This document shows, in pieces, positions 11,938-31,603 of a stretch of DNA of 64,000 bases. The DNA comes from a virus. Taxonomy: Duplodnaviria; Heunggongvirae; Uroviricota; Caudoviricetes. Made by a program: the position numbers and the translations under genes. The notes under the pieces were generated by a model. The model worked only from the letters and a program-made list of their open reading frames with translations. It was not told the DNA's origin and did not search any database. Within the stretch, counting starts at the first letter, position 1. Each line of letters begins with the position of its first letter. The stretch lies in the IMG/VR virus record IMGVR_UViG_3300025765_000001; one strand, given 5' to 3'.

Positions 11938-11968
11938 TTGAAAAAAATTGTCAGGTGCGTACTATACT
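11938..11968 (+). promoter_or_regulatory. sigma70-like promoter of the tRNA operon leader
   Basis: TTGAAA (11938) and overlapping TACTAT/TATACT (11960-11968). Confidence 0.6.
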
Positions 11969-11996: not shown

Positions 11997-12077
11997 ATGC
12001 ACGCTCTGTTAAGCTATAGCCTGTCATCCTTGTCCTCGCTCTTTAGCGAGCCTGGAGAGACTGCCGCTGTAGCTTGA
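11997..12077 (+). CDS. attenuator leader peptide MHALLSYSLSSLSSLFSEPGETAAVA
   Basis: RBS GAGGA at 11982; 14 consecutive Leu/Ser/Tyr/Phe codons; overlaps attenuator pairing segments. Confidence 0.85.
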   Translation: MHALLSYSLSSLSSLFSEPGETAAVA

Positions 12078-12144
12078 CGCACGAACGTGCGACGTGGGGA
12101 ACAAGGCCCCGGTGAGCTAAGCGGCTCACCGGGGTCTTTTTTTT
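12008..12144 (+). promoter_or_regulatory. ribosome-mediated transcriptional attenuator (1:2, 2:3, 3:4)
   Basis: 1:2 = 12008-12020 with 12066-12078; 2:3 = 12063-12075 with 12114-12125; 3:4 = terminator. Confidence 0.85.
12103..12144 (+). terminator. intrinsic terminator (attenuator 3:4)
   Basis: AAGGCCCCGGTGAGC / GCTCACCGGGGTCTT stem followed by T8. Confidence 0.92.
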
Positions 12145-12151
12145 GGTACAC

Positions 12152-12240
12152 GGAAGGGATTGCAAGTGGCTATGCTACCCTGTTTGCTAAACAGGCAGGC
12201 GGCGAAAGCCGCCTTGCGGGTTCGACTCCCGCTCCTTCCG
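12152..12240 (+). tRNA. tRNA-Ser(GCT)
   Basis: Cloverleaf, CCTGT-TTGCTAA-ACAGG, long variable arm, G73. Confidence 0.9.
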
Positions 12241-12243
12241 CTT

Positions 12244-12327
12244 GGGCCTGCTACGATTGTGGGAAACGAGACTGGCTGTAAACCAGTTGCTCTATAGAGA
12301 TAAGGGGTTCGATTCCTCACAGGCCCA
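12244..12327 (+). tRNA. tRNA-Tyr(GTA)
   Basis: GGGCCTG/CAGGCCC, ACTGG-CTGTAAA-CCAGT; atypical D arm. Confidence 0.8.
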
Positions 12328-12384
12328 TTAGGTAAAGCGGCTTTATCTAGTTAAGGTAAAGCGGCGTTATCTTAGGAGATTGAG

Positions 12385-12510
12385 ATGCAATACTGTCCGG
12401 CTTGCAACAGGTTCAAGCAAGCTAAGTTCTTCGCCGCTGAGGAACATCGGTATTGCAAAACGTGTGAGAAGAAATGGAGGAAGATCAACGGGCGAGTAGT
12501 GAAGGTATAA
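12385..12510 (+). CDS. 41-aa zinc-ribbon microprotein
   Basis: RBS AGGAG; MQYCPACNRF...YCKTCEKKWRKINGRVVKV. Confidence 0.6.
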   Translation: MQYCPACNRFKQAKFFAAEEHRYCKTCEKKWRKINGRVVKV

Positions 12511-12511
12511 C

Positions 12512-12596
12512 GGAAGAGATGAAGAGCGGCTACTTCACCTAGTCTTGAAAACTAGCGGGCCGAAAGGCTCTGCGGGTTCGACGCCCGCCTCTTCCG
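12512..12596 (+). tRNA. tRNA-Ser(TGA)
   Basis: CTAGT-CTTGAAA-ACTAG, variable arm, G73. Confidence 0.9.
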
Positions 12597-12602
12597 CTCG
12601 AT

Positions 12603-12690
12603 GCCCAGGTGGTGGAACTGGTAGACACGCAAGGTTCAGAGCCTTGTACCCGTTAAGGGCGTGTGGGTTCGAGTCCCACCCTGGGCACCA
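12603..12690 (+). tRNA. tRNA-Leu(CAG)
   Basis: Canonical class II cloverleaf with encoded CCA. Confidence 0.95.
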
Positions 12691-12691
12691 T

Positions 12692-12774
12692 GCGTCAGCA
12701 TCCCATGTGGCGAGGGAAGCAGACTGTAAATCTGTGGGCTTTAGCCTGTGCAGGTTCGACTCCTGCCTGACGCA
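12692..12774 (+). tRNA. tRNA-Tyr(GTA)
   Basis: GCGTCAG/CTGACGC, GCAGA-CTGTAAA-TCTGT. Confidence 0.88.
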
Positions 12775-12786
12775 CTGGAGGTAGAG

Positions 12787-13260
12787 ATGGTTGGTATAGT
12801 AATGGGGTCCAAGTCCGATTGGGAAACCATGAAGGCTGCCGCCGACATACTAGACCAACTCGGTGTGAAGTATGAGAAGAGAGTTGTTTCTGCTCACCGC
12901 ACACCAGACCTCCTGTTCGAGTACGCCGAGACAGCGAAGGATCGAGGACTCAGAGCGATCATAGCTGGTGCTGGTGGGGCAGCCCACCTACCGGGAATGC
13001 TCGCAGCGAAGACGAAAGTTCCGGTACTTGGAGTGCCGGTCGAATCGAAAGCCTTGCGTGGAATAGATTCGTTACTGTCGATAGTGCAGATGCCGCTTGG
13101 AGTTCCTGTGGCGACGTTCGCTATAGGGCCAGCGGGTGCCGGGAACGCCGCCCTGTTTGCCGCAGAGATGTTGGCCCACAGCAACCCGGAGATCGATTAC
13201 GCACTCGACAAGTATAGAGCGGCACAGACGCAAAGAGTGCTGGACACGGAGTTGTCATAA
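12787..13260 (+). CDS. purE: N5-CAIR mutase
   Basis: [39 protein letters not shown]. Confidence 0.97.
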
Positions 13261-13332
13261 GGGACGATAGCTGAGATAGATTAGCGATTGGCTGAAAACC
13301 AGTAGAGGTTGGTGCGATACCAACTCGTCCCA
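13261..13332 (+). tRNA. tRNA-Phe(GAA)
   Basis: GGGACGA/TCGTCCC, CTGAAAA loop; T-loop TGCGATA is atypical. Confidence 0.8.
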
Positions 13333-13344
13333 CTTGTTCTAGTC

Positions 13345-13358
13345 TGATCTTTGACAAT
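13345..13358 (+). promoter_or_regulatory. rrn-type boxA antitermination element
   Basis: TGATCTTTGACAAT, close to boxA consensus TGCTCTTTAACA, in a tRNA spacer. Confidence 0.6.
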
Positions 13359-13422
13359 TTGGTAGTTTGAAGTCGCACTTTCCCACCAGCCAGTGCGTGT
13401 CTCACCATACGCACTGGCACTT

Positions 13423-13495
13423 GTGGAGGAAGCAATTGTGGTCAATGCACCGGTCTGAAAAGCCGGTTAAGTGGGTTCGATCCCCACCCTCCACA
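13423..13495 (+). tRNA. tRNA-Phe(GAA)
   Basis: GTGGAGG/CCTCCAC, CCGGT-CTGAAAA-GCCGG. Confidence 0.85.
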
Positions 13496-13502
13496 CTCCT
13501 AT

Positions 13503-13577
13503 GAGTCGGTAGCTCAGTTGGTAGTAGCGTCTGCCTGAAGAGCAGAAGGTTCGTCGGTTCGATCCCGACCCGGCCCA
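13503..13577 (+). tRNA. tRNA-Phe(GAA)
   Basis: TAGCTCAGTTGGTAG D arm, TCTGC-CTGAAGA-GCAGA; one acceptor mismatch. Confidence 0.85.
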
Positions 13578-13702
13578 CTCGGAAGGTGCAATGTCGGCTT
13601 GTAGTCACTCTGGTTTCGCTCGTGGTGATAAAAAGATCAAACGATTGGGTGACGGAGCCGAAGGAAGTTTCCATGTCGCTCGTAGCGGCTAGGAGAAGGA
13701 CA

Positions 13703-14878
13703 ATGGAAAAGGTACATGTAAACGTCGGCACCATCGGTCACATCGACCACGGTAAGACCACGTTGACGGCTGCGATCCTTGCCGTCCAAGCAGAAAAGGG
13801 TCTAGCGAAACGCAAGAGCTACAAGGACATTGCCAAGGGCGGCACCTATCGTGACGAAAATAAAACTGTCACGATCATCACGTCGCACGTCAAGTACGAG
13901 ACGCCGACGAGGGAATACGCCCACATCGACTGCCCAGGCCACGCTGATTATGTGAAGAACATGATTACCGGGGCCGCACAGATGGACGGTGCAATCCTCC
14001 TGCTCTCGGCGGTGGACGGGCCTATGCCTCAGACAAGAGAGCATATCCTGCTCGCTCGCCAAGTGGGAGTGCCAGACCTTGTAGTGTTCATCAACAAGTG
14101 CGATCTAGTTGAAGACACCGAGATCATCGATCTGGTCGAACTGGAAGCTCGTGATCTTCTGGCGAAGTACGGATTCGACGGCGAGAAGACGCCTGTAATT
14201 CGTGGCAACGCCAAGGCAGCACTCGAAAATCCAGCCGATCCAGAATGTCGGAAGTGCATCGAGCAACTGCTAGATGCTCTCGACAGCTACATCCCGAACC
14301 CGGTGCGAGCCATCGATAAGCCGTTCCTAATGCCTATCGAGGGCGTCCATAAGATCGAGGGTCGTGGCACTGTAGCGACAGGAAAGATCGAGCAAGGCGT
14401 CGTCTGCCCCAACATGAAGGTCGAGATCATCGGCCTGGGAGAGATACGGGAAACCGTAGTCATCAGTGTTGAGGCGTTCAACGAGGCCAAGGAGAAAGGC
14501 GAAGCTGGCGAGAACGTTGGCGTCTTGCTCCGAGGCGTCAAGTACGACGAGATCAAGCGTGGTCAGGTTTTGACGCAACCTAGAACGGTCAAGCCGCAGA
14601 CCAAGTTTGAGTGCGAGGTCTACGTTCTCAGCAAGGAAGAGGGCGGGCGACACACGCCGCTGTTCAGCGGCTACAAGCCGCAGTTCTTCTTCCGAACAAC
14701 GGACGTGACGGGTGAGGTTAGCTTGGATGAAGAGATTTCAATGGTGATGCCGGGAGAAAACGCCCAACTACGAGTAGAACTCGGCAAGCCAGTGGCTCTC
14801 GAAGTCGGGACTCACTTCGCTGTCCGTGAGGGCGGCAAGACAGTTGGCTCTGGTGTCATCACCAAGATGCTAGAATAG
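13703..14878 (+). CDS. tuf: elongation factor Tu
   Basis: [41 protein letters not shown]; RBS AGGAGAAGG. Confidence 0.98.
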
Positions 14879-14884
14879 AAACCC

Positions 14885-15036
14885 AGAGTCGTTTACAATG
14901 GAATAGCCTTGATCGGGCTTGCGGGAATTAACAAGGTGCCGCTCGACGCTCATTAGCGAATCGGGAGGAAATGGGGGCCTAAGAATCCTCACAACTTGGA
15001 AGGGCATGTATAGATCGCAAGCTAGTGAACGACTCT
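14885..15036 (+). ncRNA. candidate structured RNA between tuf and the Leu tRNAs
   Basis: 12-bp closing stem AGAGTCGTTTAC/GTGAACGACTCT plus GCTTGCG/CGCAAGC. Confidence 0.45.
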
Positions 15037-15038
15037 AT

Positions 15039-15113
15039 CGCCGGGTGACGGGAATAGGCATACCTCTGATACTTAAAATATCAGGCTTGTGGGTTCGAGT
15101 CCCACCCCGGCGA
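15039..15113 (+). tRNA. tRNA-Leu(TAA), short variable loop
   Basis: TGATA-CTTAAAA-TATCA, A73. Confidence 0.88.
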
Positions 15114-15120
15114 CTAGACG

Positions 15121-15168
15121 GAAGGTGCGTCCGAAAGGACTTGTGGGTGCGAATCCCACATTCACTGT
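15121..15168 (+). pseudogene. 3' half of a class II tRNA
   Basis: Variable arm GTCCGAAAGGAC and T arm GTGGG-TGCGAAT-CCCAC without a 5' half. Confidence 0.5.
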
Positions 15169-15193
15169 AGGCGTATATTTCTCCGTCTAATTT

Positions 15194-15268
15194 GTCCAGG
15201 TGACGGGAACTGGCATACCTAGATGGCTTAGAACCATCTGTTTGTGGGTTCGACTCCCACCCTGGACA
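15194..15268 (+). tRNA. tRNA-Leu(TAG), short variable loop
   Basis: GATGG-CTTAGAA-CCATC. Confidence 0.9.
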
Positions 15269-15272
15269 CTGC

Positions 15273-15356
15273 GGCCTTGTGGTGAAATTGGCAAACACGC
15301 TAGTCTCAAACACTAGTGCCCTTACGGGCTTGTGGGTTCGAGTCCCACCAAGGCCA
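15273..15356 (+). tRNA. tRNA-Leu(CAA)
   Basis: CTAGT-CTCAAAC-ACTAG, long variable arm. Confidence 0.92.
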
Positions 15357-15360
15357 CTAT

Positions 15361-15435
15361 GTTCAGGTGACGGGAACTGGCATACCTCTCAGGTCGAGAG
15401 CCTGGGGCTTGTGGGTTCGACTCCCACCCTGAACA
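15361..15435 (+). tRNA. tRNA-Leu(GAG), short variable loop, C33
   Basis: TCAGG-TCGAGAG-CCTGG; lacks invariant U33. Confidence 0.75.
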
Positions 15436-15439
15436 CTCT

Positions 15440-15514
15440 GCCGAGATGACGGGAACTGGCATACCTCTCAGCCTCAAAAGCTGGGGTTTGTGGGTTCGAC
15501 TCCCACTCTCGGCA
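15440..15514 (+). tRNA. tRNA-Leu(CAA), short variable loop
   Basis: TCAGC-CTCAAAA-GCTGG. Confidence 0.88.
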
Positions 15515-15523
15515 CTAGAAACG

Positions 15524-15550
15524 AAAAGGCCCGCCTTGCGGCGGGCCTTT
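15524..15550. terminator. bidirectional terminator
   Basis: AAAAGGCCCGCC-TTGC-GGCGGGCCTTT between convergent units; same hairpin inverted at 20861. Confidence 0.8.
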
Positions 15551-15554
15551 GGGA

Positions 15555-15899
15555 CTACTTCTTGGAAGTCCGTTTCTTCGATGTGGTTTTCTTGGCTGAC
15601 TTCTTGGAGGCCCTGGCTTCGGCCCGGCGAGCTTTGATAGCTTCGGTCCAGAGTGTGGTTTGCTCCTCCTCGTTGTCGTAGTCAACCTCGAAGCCGTGGG
15701 TGTCAACCTGATCGTTCTTGAGACCGAGCTTCTCCTGGGCGGTGTAGGCACCACCGACCCCGCCGAGTTGCCCAAGGACGCACTCGAAGTTGGATGACAT
15801 CTGCAAGTTCGCAGGCTTGACCTTGTTGGCCCAGCCCGGCCAATCCTTGTCGAGTTTGCGGATGCCCCGATTGACACGAGTTTTGATAGATTCGGCCAT
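15555..15899 (-). CDS. hypothetical protein with Lys-rich tail
   Basis: RBS AAGGAG; ends SKKSAKKTTSKKRTSKK. Confidence 0.7.
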   Translation of the reverse strand: MAESIKTRVNRGIRKLDKDWPGWANKVKPANLQMSSNFECVLGQLGGVGGAYTAQEKLGLKNDQVDTHGFEVDYDNEEEQTTLWTEAIKARRAEARASKKSAKKTTSKKRTSKK

Positions 15900-16315
15900 G
15901 ACACAACTCCTTAACATTATGGGTAAGCGAAACGAAGAGGCAGTATCACAAGAACTAGGTTTTTTGACAAGAGCAACACTACAGGCCCAACTGAAAGCCG
16001 ATAGACAGGGTTCAGCGGGCGTAGCTAACCTGCGTTGCCTGCCATGAGCGGTCGCAAGACACGTCTCTTCAGGAAGACCTACGACGAGATATGCGGGTTC
16101 GATTCCCGTCAGGTCCACTACCACGGATTGCAAAGGTAATGATCGAGTGCTTCCAGGGCTTGGCGGACTTGCCAAACCGGAACAACTGAACGGAAGGAGA
16201 TTTTCGGATCGTGCCAGTCTTGCAGATCAACGGATGCATTTGTGTCGTCCGTGACTATGCTAAGGTAGCATGATCCCATCTTTACTACCTGCATGATGCT
16301 ATATAGTAGAACCAC

Positions 16316-16404
16316 GGAAGCGATTAAGAGTGGCTACTTTACCCCGCTTGGAAAGCGGGCAGGCGGTGCAAGCCGCCTTGCGAGTTCGACTCTCGCCGCT
16401 TCCG
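16316..16404 (+). tRNA. tRNA-Ser(GGA)
   Basis: CCCGC-TTGGAAA-GCGGG, variable arm, G73. Confidence 0.9.
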
Positions 16405-16422
16405 CTCCCGAAAGAAAGGCAC

Positions 16423-16668
16423 ATGAAAGACATGAACATCATTCAGTTTCTAGCTCGCAAGGGAGCGACTGTTTCGATGTCGGAAAGCAGGCGACTCGTG
16501 GCTTGTGGTATAGTTCGTGTGAACGACCACCCTGAACCTGACATGTCCAGAGTTCTCAAAGTCGGCGATGTCGTCTCTATAGGACAAAGGAGATGGGTAT
16601 GTACCGATGCAGAAGTACAAGATTCTCCAGACAAGGACAGTGAAGGAGTTCCTATGGTTTCCCCGTAG
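16423..16668 (+). CDS. stand-alone S4-like RNA-binding domain (TyrRS C-terminal type)
   Basis: SMSESRRLVACGIVRVND...LKVGDVVSIGQRRW. Confidence 0.75.
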   Translation: MKDMNIIQFLARKGATVSMSESRRLVACGIVRVNDHPEPDMSRVLKVGDVVSIGQRRWVCTDAEVQDSPDKDSEGVPMVSP

Positions 16669-16768
16669 GGTAAAAGGCAAACTCCGCTGGCTGTGCTTCA
16701 TCGAACATTCTGAATTTTTGATCCAGGTGCGATCCACTGGCGAACGTAAATGGGTCAAATTCAAGTAA

Positions 16769-16853
16769 GGAAGAGATTGAGAGCGGCTACTCTACCTCGC
16801 CTCGAAAGCGAGCGGGCCGAAAGGCTCTGCGGGTTCGACTCCCGCCTCTTCCG
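16769..16853 (+). tRNA. tRNA-Ser(CGA)
   Basis: CTCGC-CTCGAAA-GCGAG, variable arm, G73. Confidence 0.9.
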
Positions 16854-16917
16854 CTTTTGACCACGCCTCAAACGTGAGCTATGCTTTTCTGTGGACTAAC
16901 TCAGGGGAGCAAGAAGC

Positions 16918-17211
16918 ATGAAGGTCGTGTGTGCGTGGTGCCAGGAGCGGATGCCCGACAAGGAGCCGCTTGAAGACGAAACGATTTCGCATGGGCTGTG
17001 TGGTCCATGCATGGCGGTGGTGCTGGAAGAATCGTGTTTACAATCGACCCCGAAGACACTAGAATGCCGGGGTCTTGATGCAGAAAGAGTCGTTCAGTTG
17101 CCAAGCGGAGTAGGAAATTCAGATGAGACAACCGCCGTTCGGAATGCCCCCCTGGATGATGGGTCCGTGGATGATGGGGCAGGACCAGCAGCACCAGCAA
17201 TATACTCCTGA
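16918..17211 (+). CDS. small Zn-binding hypothetical protein
   Basis: CAWC..SHGLCGPC. Confidence 0.55.
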   Translation: MKVVCAWCQERMPDKEPLEDETISHGLCGPCMAVVLEESCLQSTPKTLECRGLDAERVVQLPSGVGNSDETTAVRNAPLDDGSVDDGAGPAAPAIYS

Positions 17212-17230
17212 CCTCATCGTTCCAGCCAGA

Positions 17231-17680
17231 GTGCCTTCCGAGAATCCAGTTTTGAAAATTGGCGAAGGTTCCTCGAACCTGTACTAAGGAACCTAAATAG
17301 GTAAACCTCACAGCTTCGGCAGTGGGACAATGCTCACGAGATGAAGACCCAGAAGGAACCGTAGAGGGTGGAAGTCCCGTAGTCGCCGACATGTTGTAAT
17401 AGACGTAGACTGAACTGTTCCTCTGGTCGGAAATCAGGGGCGTGTGGGAGACGCTGAAAGCACCATTGTTTGGCAGATAATCTAAGCGTCAGTTGTACCA
17501 CGGTTGATGATCGGTCGGATGGTGCACAGGGCTTCGGCCTATGCATGTGTCATCAGCGTGAGGGCTAACCGACAAACTCTGGACAAGGCCATATCCAACG
17601 GCGTGCCTGTTCGGTAGCCGTATGGACCGGGATGCAGGGGAGGGGTGTTGCCCGATACAGAACCTCAGAGAAGGGCCGGT
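17231..17680 (+). ncRNA. candidate large structured ncRNA (RNA-A)
   Basis: ~450 nt with no credible ORF and many hairpins, including two UUCG loops. Confidence 0.55.
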
Positions 17681-17704
17681 TAGCATTTTTGTACCAGGAG
17701 AACG

Positions 17705-17956
17705 ATGATTTCAGACAACGGATTCCCTCGTCGGTGCCGAATTGATCTGATGACTCCAGCCGAACTTGTAATCCGCAGAGCAACCAGGGAAAAGACACTC
17801 AATCGTGAAGTTGGGGAATTGAAAAATTCTGCTTCTCTGAAAGATCAAATTTGCGGATTACTGATGGATATGCATATTGGGTCAAGTGGTATGCACAGGC
17901 CAGCAGTGGAGGCAAAGTCGGTGGCTATCCTCGAACTAGTCAATGAATCGGCGTGA
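17705..17956 (+). CDS. hypothetical protein
   Basis: RBS AGGAG; short ORF. Confidence 0.45.
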   Translation: MISDNGFPRRCRIDLMTPAELVIRRATREKTLNREVGELKNSASLKDQICGLLMDMHIGSSGMHRPAVEAKSVAILELVNESA

Positions 17957-17983
17957 CCGTCTAATAAATGGACGCTTTTCGTA

Positions 17984-18068
17984 GCCCAGGTGGTGAAATG
18001 GCAGACATGCAAGGCTCAGAACCTTGTGCCAGTTAAACGGCGTGTCGGTTCGAGTCCGGCCGTGGGCA
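17984..18068 (+). tRNA. tRNA-Leu(CAG)
   Basis: CAAGG-CTCAGAA-CCTTG; one acceptor mismatch. Confidence 0.85.
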
Positions 18069-18108
18069 CTTAGGCCCTCTGGGGGTAGACCCTTGGGAGA
18101 CCTCCCTT

Positions 18109-31516: not shown

Positions 31517-31520
31517 AAAG

Positions 31521-31603
31521 TGCCCTTGGCAGGACTCGAACCTGCACGCCTTACGGTACATGGTCCTAAGCCATGCGTGTCTGCCTGATTCCACCACAAG
31601 GGC
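31521..31603 (-). tRNA. tRNA-Leu(TAG)
   Basis: GCCCTTG/CAAGGGC-A, CATGG-CTTAGGA-CCATG, class II. Confidence 0.93.

Follow-up and report, generated by a model that had tools for sequence, protein, structure and literature searches.

Why would a phage carry sixteen transfer RNA (tRNA) genes for only four amino acids, and place them around a gene for elongation factor EF-Tu? The question is raised by a stretch of 64 kb, here called the window, which is the first part of a 435,946-bp virus record (IMG/VR IMGVR_UViG_3300025765_000001, Caudoviricetes; label G000). CheckV puts the completeness of the record at about 85%, and ARAGORN finds 63 tRNA genes and one transfer-messenger RNA (tmRNA) in it. 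The array studied here serves serine, leucine, tyrosine and phenylalanine and has tuf, the EF-Tu gene, in its midst (Table 1). A preliminary description of the locus had seen in it a module that replaces one structural class of tRNA, the class II tRNAs with a long variable arm. Our analysis points elsewhere: the array is probably the body of a ribosome-sensed transcription unit under a leader-peptide attenuator, and not a set held together by a shared tRNA shape.

A tRNA array for four amino acids

Between 12152 and 18069, all on the + strand, ARAGORN finds 15 tRNA genes: Ser (GCT, TGA, GGA, CGA), Tyr (GTA, twice), Leu (CAG twice, TAA, TAG, CAA twice, GAG) and Phe (GAA, twice). A third tRNA-Phe(GAA), at 13261-13332, was overlooked by that program, probably because of its T loop (TGCGATA); it scores 51.4 bits with the Rfam tRNA model and folds into a cloverleaf. 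All 16 genes match tRNA-clan models in Infernal. The earlier count of 16 genes for four amino acids only holds good.

The order of these genes is not random. A 16-gene run limited to four amino acids arose in none of 200,000 gene-order shuffles, and the 22 same-amino-acid neighbour pairs counted genome-wide were likewise reached in 0 of 200,000. The preliminary description had set random order against grouping by amino acid as its test, and grouping is what the whole genome displays. The genome's whole set of Ser (4), Leu (8) and Tyr (2) genes sits inside the 64-kb window, as do most of its Phe genes, and whole-genome ARAGORN finds no Ser, Leu or Tyr gene in the arrays at 165-192 kb. The Ser/Leu/Tyr/Phe array is a genuine, non-random module. 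Its families are old: identity is 70-88% inside families (Ser 74-88%, long-arm Leu 74-83%, short-arm Leu 70-83%) and 55-65% across them. Recent duplication is thereby ruled out as the origin of the array, the closest gene pair being just 88% identical.

A leader that matches the array

What stands in front of the first tRNA gene? A promoter-like site is followed by a short open reading frame (ORF) with a ribosome-binding site, MHALLSYSLSSLSSLFSEPGETAAVA, in which codons 4-17 are 14 consecutive Leu, Ser, Tyr or Phe codons, 10 of them different. Beyond it lies an intrinsic terminator whose stem (12105-12136) ends 16 nt upstream of tRNA-Ser(GCT), and an alternative helix between the end of the leader and the terminator is predicted (Table 1).

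The behaviour of this RNA was simulated in silico, the stalled state being modelled with a ribosome mid-run and the RNA folded as far as the terminator loop. In this state the 14-nt 5' arm of the window terminator had 12 nt sequestered. In all 12 leaders folded, a mid-run ribosome gave a best fold that occupies most of the terminator 5' arm (18/19 nt in locus L045, 17/19 in L046 and 16/17 in L048), and a ribosome at the stop codon left the terminator intact. The energies of the antiterminator folds are close to those of the terminators. Five of nine leaders (L045, L046, L048, L050 and L077) end in GGCTGC, and L051 has a one-base variant of it; as this hexamer repeats part of the terminator's 3' arm, it would be able to compete for the 5' arm. 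An ORF with a ribosome-binding site, a matched codon cluster, a terminator and an antiterminator (the last in silico) are thus all present, and at the sequence level the locus has every defining feature of a leader-peptide attenuator. No T-box was detected by Rfam at the array.

Two further leaders in the same genome

If the leader specifies the array, do other arrays have leaders of their own? The preliminary description had supposed that other arrays with their own leaders may exist outside the window, and two were found. A genome scan for strong terminators just before tRNA genes returned four sites: the window site, a site at about 250 kb that merely ends a gene, and two built like the window site. 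The ORFs at the latter two, leader B and leader C, had been missed by a scan for runs of residues, and a six-frame low-complexity scan was too noisy; both came from the terminator-first scan. Leader B, MAVLIQRHGKQWCRCHKQWNNQITYLMS, precedes an Asn/Lys/Ile/His/Gln/Arg/Cys array (165874 to 173603). Leader C, MLTCRFTFVERTAGTTEAVAPAAVRPEGMSAVDTTV, precedes a Met/Pro/Gly/Asp/Thr/Glu/Val/Ala array with one TCA suppressor-like tRNA (185078 to 192503), and its terminator, like that of the window, ends 16 nt upstream of the first of these genes, a tRNA-Met.

Binomial window tests on these two leaders gave p = 1.9e-6 for B and 3.3e-6 for C. With wobble allowed, each leader covers every anticodon species of its own array: 11/11 for the window leader, 9/9 for B and 16/16 for C, the TCA suppressor-like tRNA being left out of the last count and not covered. 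Cross-coverage is low, each leader reading just 1-5 anticodon species of the other arrays, and among 2036 control small ORFs no more than one attains both composition and coverage for any one array.

The B array is broken up by mobile genes at 167279-170152 (L085 3280-6150), which encode a MerR-type helix-turn-helix protein, a LAGLIDADG endonuclease, a serine resolvase and an IS605-type OrfB/TnpB protein. Leader B contains two TGG codons, yet tRNA-Trp(CCA) was not found in the genome.

The cassette in related phages

With the EF-Tu protein as query, 37 loci were retrieved. Ten of them, with EF-Tu 67-74% identical to the window copy, carry Ser/Leu/Tyr/Phe arrays around tuf; eight are distinct (L045, L046, L048, L050, L051, L052, L054 and L077), L049 and L053 being duplicates of L048 and L052. 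The composition of the arrays is nearly pure, the exceptions being an edge Val gene in L051, a long-arm CTA suppressor-like tRNA in L050 and a tRNA that ARAGORN could not assign in L077. The L050 gene (9218-9308) is 91 nt long, has an amber-reading anticodon and lies inside the array. Gene order differs between the ten arrays. By tblastn, tuf is the sole protein gene common to them; purE, the S4-like ORF and the zinc ribbons were not conserved in the relatives' arrays and are taken to be passengers.

All eight distinct loci have an ORF of 24-27 codons upstream of the array on the same strand, with a large terminator downstream of the ORF. The promoter pattern TTGA...TAC(T/C)ATA precedes the relatives' leaders too. 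The leaders (for example VNTLSLSLSLSYSSLYLFSDGEGCVLT, VNFFSLSLSLFSSSSLFSYSAEGGCTV, MTFSFSSSLLYLYSLSREHDTVMD and MRTLLSSLFSLSLLSSLYSDGIGGSV) hold a pure Leu/Ser/Tyr/Phe run of 9-18 codons with 7-14 different codons, and the shortest runs (L051 and L077) pick up again past one other residue. In the six related loci that could be tested, binomial p ranged from 6e-11 to 2e-8, with 58 candidate ORFs tested. The peptides have diverged in sequence and retained their composition, as would be expected of selection on which tRNAs are sampled.

An independent case of the leader-array match, again read from sequence, is L058. Here the leader MTGKTTNKMTFTGKGT (MLSTYGCIFMTGKTTNKMTFTGKGTAVYWDE) is followed by a terminator and then by a Met/Thr/Lys/Gly array in which tuf is again included (p = 1.7e-8), and the encoded EF-Tu is 56% identical and has an ordinary RGITI switch I. 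G001, a complete relative of 533 kb, has its Ser/Leu/Tyr/Phe array separate from the other tRNA genes, at 473-499 kb.

A model of demand-controlled supply

How might such a leader act? Transcription from the promoter would yield the 26-codon leader, whose codons 4-17 can be read by all 11 downstream anticodon species. When decoding is fast, the ribosome would arrive at the stop codon and cover the nearby RNA, the terminator would form, and transcription would halt 16 nt short of the first tRNA. When too little charged tRNA for Leu, Ser, Tyr or Phe is available, slow decoding would stall the ribosome in the run; the RNA at the 3' end of the leader would then pair with the 5' arm of the terminator, and polymerase would continue into the tRNA genes and tuf. 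The four amino acids would in this model be the membership list of one feedback loop, and at least three loops of this kind, with a leader apiece, would operate in the genome. The DNA and its comparison with relatives show the parts, how they are conserved and how leader matches array; that a stalled ribosome switches termination, and that tRNA and EF-Tu are thereby supplied on demand in the infected cell, is inferred.

Short-arm leucine tRNAs and the class II reading

The preliminary description had proposed that the array is united by class II tRNAs. Of the 16 genes, nine carry a long variable arm: four Ser, two Tyr and three Leu. The other seven, namely the three Phe genes and four 76-nt Leu genes at 15039, 15194, 15361 and 15440, have short variable loops of 4-5 nt. 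Cloverleaf drawings, together with covariation among 39 members of the short-arm Leu family, rule out the long arm as a feature common to the array. Long-arm and short-arm Leu genes of one anticodon (CAA) even sit side by side.

An invariant D arm, TGACGGGAAYTGGCATACCT, is common to the short-arm Leu genes. Used as an exact pattern, it was found in 44 IMG/VR contigs, in which 42 matches are tRNAs with Leu-type anticodons, and blastn found the type in cultured Acinetobacter, Streptomyces and Aeromonas phages, annotated there as plain tRNA-Leu. The family has the anticodons TAA, TAG, CAA, CAG and GAG. In the alignment of 39 distinct members, covariation is rich in the acceptor, anticodon and T stems, the anticodon stem has 7 bp with an invariant U.G pair, the D stem holds just two invariant G-C pairs, and A73 and A37 are conserved at 90% or more.

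According to a review, a long arm is found on the tRNA-Leu of all organisms save animal mitochondria, and E. coli leucyl-tRNA synthetase (LeuRS) requires A73 and the D/T-loop elbow, not the long arm (PMC9976931). In Streptomyces coelicolor, Fan et al. (2019, PMC6614811) describe a type I tRNA-Leu(CAA) whose variable loop is short; it coexists with long-arm tRNA-Leu and is charged by the single LeuRS. The phage genes resemble it in placing short-loop beside long-arm Leu. They differ in being a phage-borne family with an invariant D arm, a 7-bp anticodon stem and five anticodons, known so far as sequences. In the literature no direct match to a published phage short-arm tRNA-Leu was found, and the S. 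coelicolor tRNA-Leu(CAA) was the sole published precedent found. No LeuRS or SerRS-type enzyme was found in the phage genome; its class Ia synthetase at 210,989-213,776 is an isoleucyl enzyme (IleRS).

Several tRNAs of the array are unusual in other respects. All four CUN-reading Leu genes (12603-12690, 15194-15269, 15361-15436 and 17984-18069) have A37. In E. coli tRNA-Leu(CAG) this position is G37, methylated to m1G. Leu(GAG) at 15361-15436 has C33 instead of U33. In the tRNA-Phe at 13261-13332, T-loop position 55 is G and not U (loop TGCGATA); the one at 13503-13578 has G at position 37, where bacterial tRNA-Phe has A37. In the Streptomyces phage Jay2Jay, a 72-nt short-arm tRNA-Tyr (L087 22690-22761) adjoins an ordinary 83-nt tRNA-Tyr.

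Weighing the explanations

Could a host nuclease that attacks class II tRNAs nonetheless account for the module? The genome's Ser, Leu and Tyr genes are indeed all here, and phage tRNAs are known to defeat tRNA-cutting defences: T5 tRNA-Tyr counters Retron-Eco7 (PMC11555353) and T5 tRNA-Lys counters PARIS (PMC11464382). A37 in the four CUN-reading Leu genes would also fit, and a short-arm Leu could in principle evade an enzyme that reads the long arm. Yet seven of the 16 lack the class II structure, Phe genes are constant members, and the long and short Leu(CAA) adjoin. The phage also encodes tRNAs for most other amino acids, so that no single class is singled out for replacement, and the other arrays, which serve those amino acids, have the same leader build. 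If amino-acid families are kept as units, Ser, Leu and Tyr would share one of three groups by chance with a probability of about 0.1. In 41 distinct unrelated phage tRNA loci, Leu genes have no preference for Ser, Tyr or Phe neighbours (apart from Leu itself, the most frequent neighbours are Arg, Glu, Val, Gly and Ser; Tyr occurs 3 times and Phe 0), and the class II genes of Jay2Jay are scattered, so the grouping is specific to the cassette of this lineage and no general law. Neither a nuclease nor a host was identified. The replacement of one structural class is accordingly not supported, and we hold it to be quite improbable.

Slightly less credence still is given to two other explanations, between which we make no difference. 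One is that the grouping is history only, produced by local duplication and anticodon change, with a coincidental upstream ORF and constitutive expression. Adjoining isoacceptors across the genome, the likeness within families and the isoacceptor pairing of the leaderless Jay2Jay all agree with this. Duplication covers families of a single amino acid, not four families 55-65% alike that stay with tuf despite reshuffled order, and it leaves unexplained the three leaders in one genome that each fit only their own array, the fixed composition of diverged leaders and the conserved terminator/antiterminator design. The other is that the set is defined by codons. In bacteria, the tRNAs with A36 that read U-first codons share the i6A37 modification, and the Phe, Leu (UUR), Ser (UCN) and Tyr tRNAs might share a maturation need or a decoding weakness. 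A36 is found in 11 of the 16 genes, and the first codon base roughly separates the three arrays (U; A plus CAN; G plus CCN and ACN). Five genes misfit (Ser GCT; Leu CAG x2, TAG and GAG), Cys (UGY) is placed in another array, one Phe gene has G37 and no MiaA gene was found in the phage.

Control by a leader-peptide attenuator remains the probable explanation, and several observations weigh against it. Given each peptide, the synonymous codons used cover the anticodons no more fully than random choice would (P = 0.25-0.48); additional codon tuning is rejected, and the signal lies in amino-acid composition. Leaders B and C are single instances for which relatives were not found, and leader C lies within a frame open for 227 codons, which has no Pfam match and looks non-coding. 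The leader rule is not universal. G001 has its remaining 36 tRNA genes in a single mixed array, for which no leader was detected, the contig end included. In L047, tuf lies in a Met/Lys/Glu/Gly/Gln/Pro/Asn/Asp/Trp/Ala array with no leader, where the promoter abuts the first tRNA. In Jay2Jay no leader was found.

A further difficulty lies inside the window. The preliminary description had placed a terminator at 15524 and an inverted gene before the last tRNA genes. Both are present, the former as a GC-rich hairpin at 15525-15550; since its U tract suits the minus strand better, it is only a weak terminator on the + strand. Three tRNA genes, Ser(GGA), Ser(CGA) and the second Leu(CAG), are on the far side of this hairpin and the inverted gene and may need read-through or a promoter of their own. 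They may be outside leader control, despite the leader sampling their codons.

An EF-Tu with an altered switch I

The interleaving of tuf and purE with the tRNA genes, noted in the preliminary description, was confirmed, and its S4 domain was only marginal (22.4 bits against a cut-off of 22.8). The phage EF-Tu has intact GTPase motifs, NKCD included, and its best solved homologue matches at 2e-161; over the printed alignment it is about 60% identical to bacterial EF-Tu. Its switch I (residues about 44-66) is altered. The near-universal bacterial sequence is APEEKERGITINTAHV, and the phage protein has KTVTI where bacteria have RGITI. G000 has the pattern IAKGGT.RD..K(T/V)VT(I/V)(T/I)(T/S)SHV, and so do 10 of the 11 loci whose EF-Tu is 67-74% identical to its own, L047 among them; in the eleventh, L077, the frame breaks before switch I. 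The tuf matches of L077 (10001-11166) come in four frame-shifted pieces. The 24 other EF-Tu copies printed in full, that of L058 included, keep APEE..(R/K)G(I/V)TI.

The Lit protease cuts bacterial EF-Tu within RGITI, the sequence that is gone from the phage protein. It is a speculation from sequence that the altered switch I might give resistance to Lit-like attack. A leader that reports slow decoding would do so whatever had depleted the tRNAs. The cassette might also be a sensor-coupled decoding rescue unit: the leader would gauge the reading of 11 anticodon species and, only on failure, turn on replacement tRNAs (including the phage-only short-arm Leu) and an EF-Tu lacking RGITI, as an inducible counter to host defences that shut down translation. 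This extension of the attenuator model is tentative, and we regard it as doubtful.

Relation to known systems

The predicted mechanism has well-known counterparts. The enterobacterial leader attenuators (trpL, hisL, leuL, pheL, thrL, ilv; pheST) likewise have a promoter, a short codon-rich ORF, mutually exclusive helices and a terminator before the first gene, and stalling at the regulatory codons favours read-through in them, as is predicted for the phage. The ilv and thr leaders also sample several amino acids together. The phage leaders differ in their targets, which are tRNA genes and EF-Tu instead of biosynthetic enzymes or a synthetase, so that the loop would sense its own products. They differ further in breadth, with 4-8 amino acids per leader and one to several codons per isoacceptor, and in being phage-borne, with several parallel cassettes in one genome.

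In the tRNA-tufB operon of E. coli the gene order is thrU-tyrU-glyT-thrT-tufB, and the corresponding Thr-Tyr-Gly-Thr-tuf order was seen in three bacterial-type contigs that were fetched (L055, L066 and L073). The phage array resembles this operon in joining tRNA genes and an EF-Tu gene in a single one-strand unit. It differs in a far larger and different tRNA set, in the leader attenuator in front and in the altered switch I. T-box riboswitches also govern translation-supply genes by tRNA state through a choice of terminator or antiterminator, but a T-box binds uncharged tRNA directly without translation, whereas sensing in the phage would pass through the speed of the ribosome on the leader ORF. 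Phage tRNA supply can offset host tRNA loss, as seen for the tRNA clusters and anti-defence tRNAs of T4 and T5 (PMC11555353, PMC11464382, PMC11025619); those clusters are not reported as partitioned by amino acid or leader-gated, and no defence system has been linked to the present array.

Full-text searches of the literature turned up no account of tRNA operons controlled by a leader peptide. Judged from sequence, the novelty would lie in a known attenuation mechanism with new targets (tRNA genes and EF-Tu), wider breadth and several cassettes per genome. If the switch works, the virus would gauge the decoding capacity of its host codon by codon, and only the tRNA sets and the elongation factor in short supply would be topped up. 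Attenuation of the trp-operon style would then extend from amino-acid supply to the decoding machinery, the amino-acid sorting of giant-phage tRNA arrays would be explained, and arrays could be read by the rule that the leader peptide spells the array. The leaders would also be small natural devices for reporting whether chosen tRNAs are available. The short-arm leucine tRNAs and the EF-Tu with a rewritten switch I are oddities worth biochemistry.

Features of the locus and minor observations

Table 1. Coordinates of features at the array and of the additional leaders in the same record
Feature	Position	Strand	Remarks	Evidence
Promoter-like site	11938-11965	+	TTGAAA, 16 nt, TACTAT	Sequence
Leader ORF, 26 codons	11997-12077	+	Ribosome-binding site GAGGAA 9 nt upstream	Sequence
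Predicted antiterminator	12066-12122	+	12066-12075 paired with 12113-12122, plus inner helix	Folding simulation
Intrinsic terminator	12105-12146	+	14-bp stem, -28.6 kcal/mol, run of 8 T	Fold
tRNA-Ser(GCT)	12152-12241	+	Long arm	ARAGORN
tRNA-Tyr(GTA)	12243-12328	+	Long arm	ARAGORN
Zinc-ribbon-like ORF, 41 aa	12385-12510	+	Not conserved in relatives	ORF, Pfam search
tRNA-Ser(TGA)	12512-12597	+	Long arm	ARAGORN
tRNA-Leu(CAG)	12603-12690	+	Long arm	ARAGORN, Rfam
tRNA-Tyr(GTA)	12692-12775	+	Long arm; 60% identity to first Tyr gene	ARAGORN
purE (AIR carboxylase)	12787-13260	+	Passenger	Pfam 1.7e-63
tRNA-Phe(GAA)	13261-13332	+	Odd T loop TGCGATA	Rfam only
tRNA-Phe(GAA)	13423-13496	+		ARAGORN, Rfam
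tRNA-Phe(GAA)	13503-13578	+	G37	ARAGORN
tuf (EF-Tu), 401 aa	13673-14878	+	Three domains	Pfam GTP_EFTU, D2, D3
tRNA-Leu(TAA)	15039-15114	+	Short-arm phage type	ARAGORN
tRNA-like element, 79 nt	15115-15193	+	Stable; 8-bp closing stem, T-arm-like hairpin (loop TGCGAAT)	Fold z-score -4.1
tRNA-Leu(TAG)	15194-15269	+	Short-arm phage type	ARAGORN, Rfam
tRNA-Leu(CAA)	15273-15357	+	Long arm	ARAGORN, Rfam
tRNA-Leu(GAG)	15361-15436	+	Short-arm phage type, C33	ARAGORN
tRNA-Leu(CAA)	15440-15515	+	Short-arm phage type	ARAGORN, Rfam
GC-rich hairpin	15525-15550	.	Good terminator for convergent minus-strand gene; poor U tract on +	
Inverted gene, 115 aa	15555-15902	-	No family assigned; Lys-rich tail	ORF, Pfam search
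tRNA-Ser(GGA)	16316-16405	+	Long arm	ARAGORN
S4-like ORF, 81 aa	16423-16668	+	Not conserved in relatives	Pfam, marginal
tRNA-Ser(CGA)	16769-16854	+	Long arm	ARAGORN
tRNA-Leu(CAG)	17984-18069	+	Long arm	ARAGORN, Rfam
tRNA-Leu(TAG), stray	31520-31603	-	Long arm; outside array	ARAGORN, Rfam
Leader B ORF	165335-165421		Terminator 165483-165519	Terminator-first scan
Leader C ORF	184850-184960		AAGGAG and promoter-like site upstream; terminator 185030-185062	Terminator-first scan

Three stretches between the tRNA genes were considered as possible structured RNAs. The element at 15115-15193, between two Leu genes, may be a tRNA remnant or a tRNA-like RNA, as judged from its predicted fold. An acceptor/T-arm minihelix lies at 16093-16162 (GCGGGTTCGATTCCCGT, then CAGGTCCA) and matches tmRNA models weakly, below threshold (E = 7e-4 and 0.07); the wider region 15985-16122 has no significant fold. 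The ORF-free stretch 17290-17700 was rejected as a structured RNA (fold z-score +0.4).

Elsewhere in the 435,946-bp record, suppressor-like tRNAs with the anticodons TCA and CTA, a tRNA whose anticodon was called as four bases (taac) and a tRNA-Ile(TAT) of 90 nt are listed at 191389-191459, 219242-219319 (- strand), 206777-206873 and 206405-206494. The gene for the phage isoleucyl-tRNA synthetase (928 aa; TIGR00392, 5e-217; G000 210989-213776, L088 990-3776) lies about 4.5 kb downstream of this tRNA-Ile(TAT), and a second class I synthetase-like ORF is found at about 256-257 kb.

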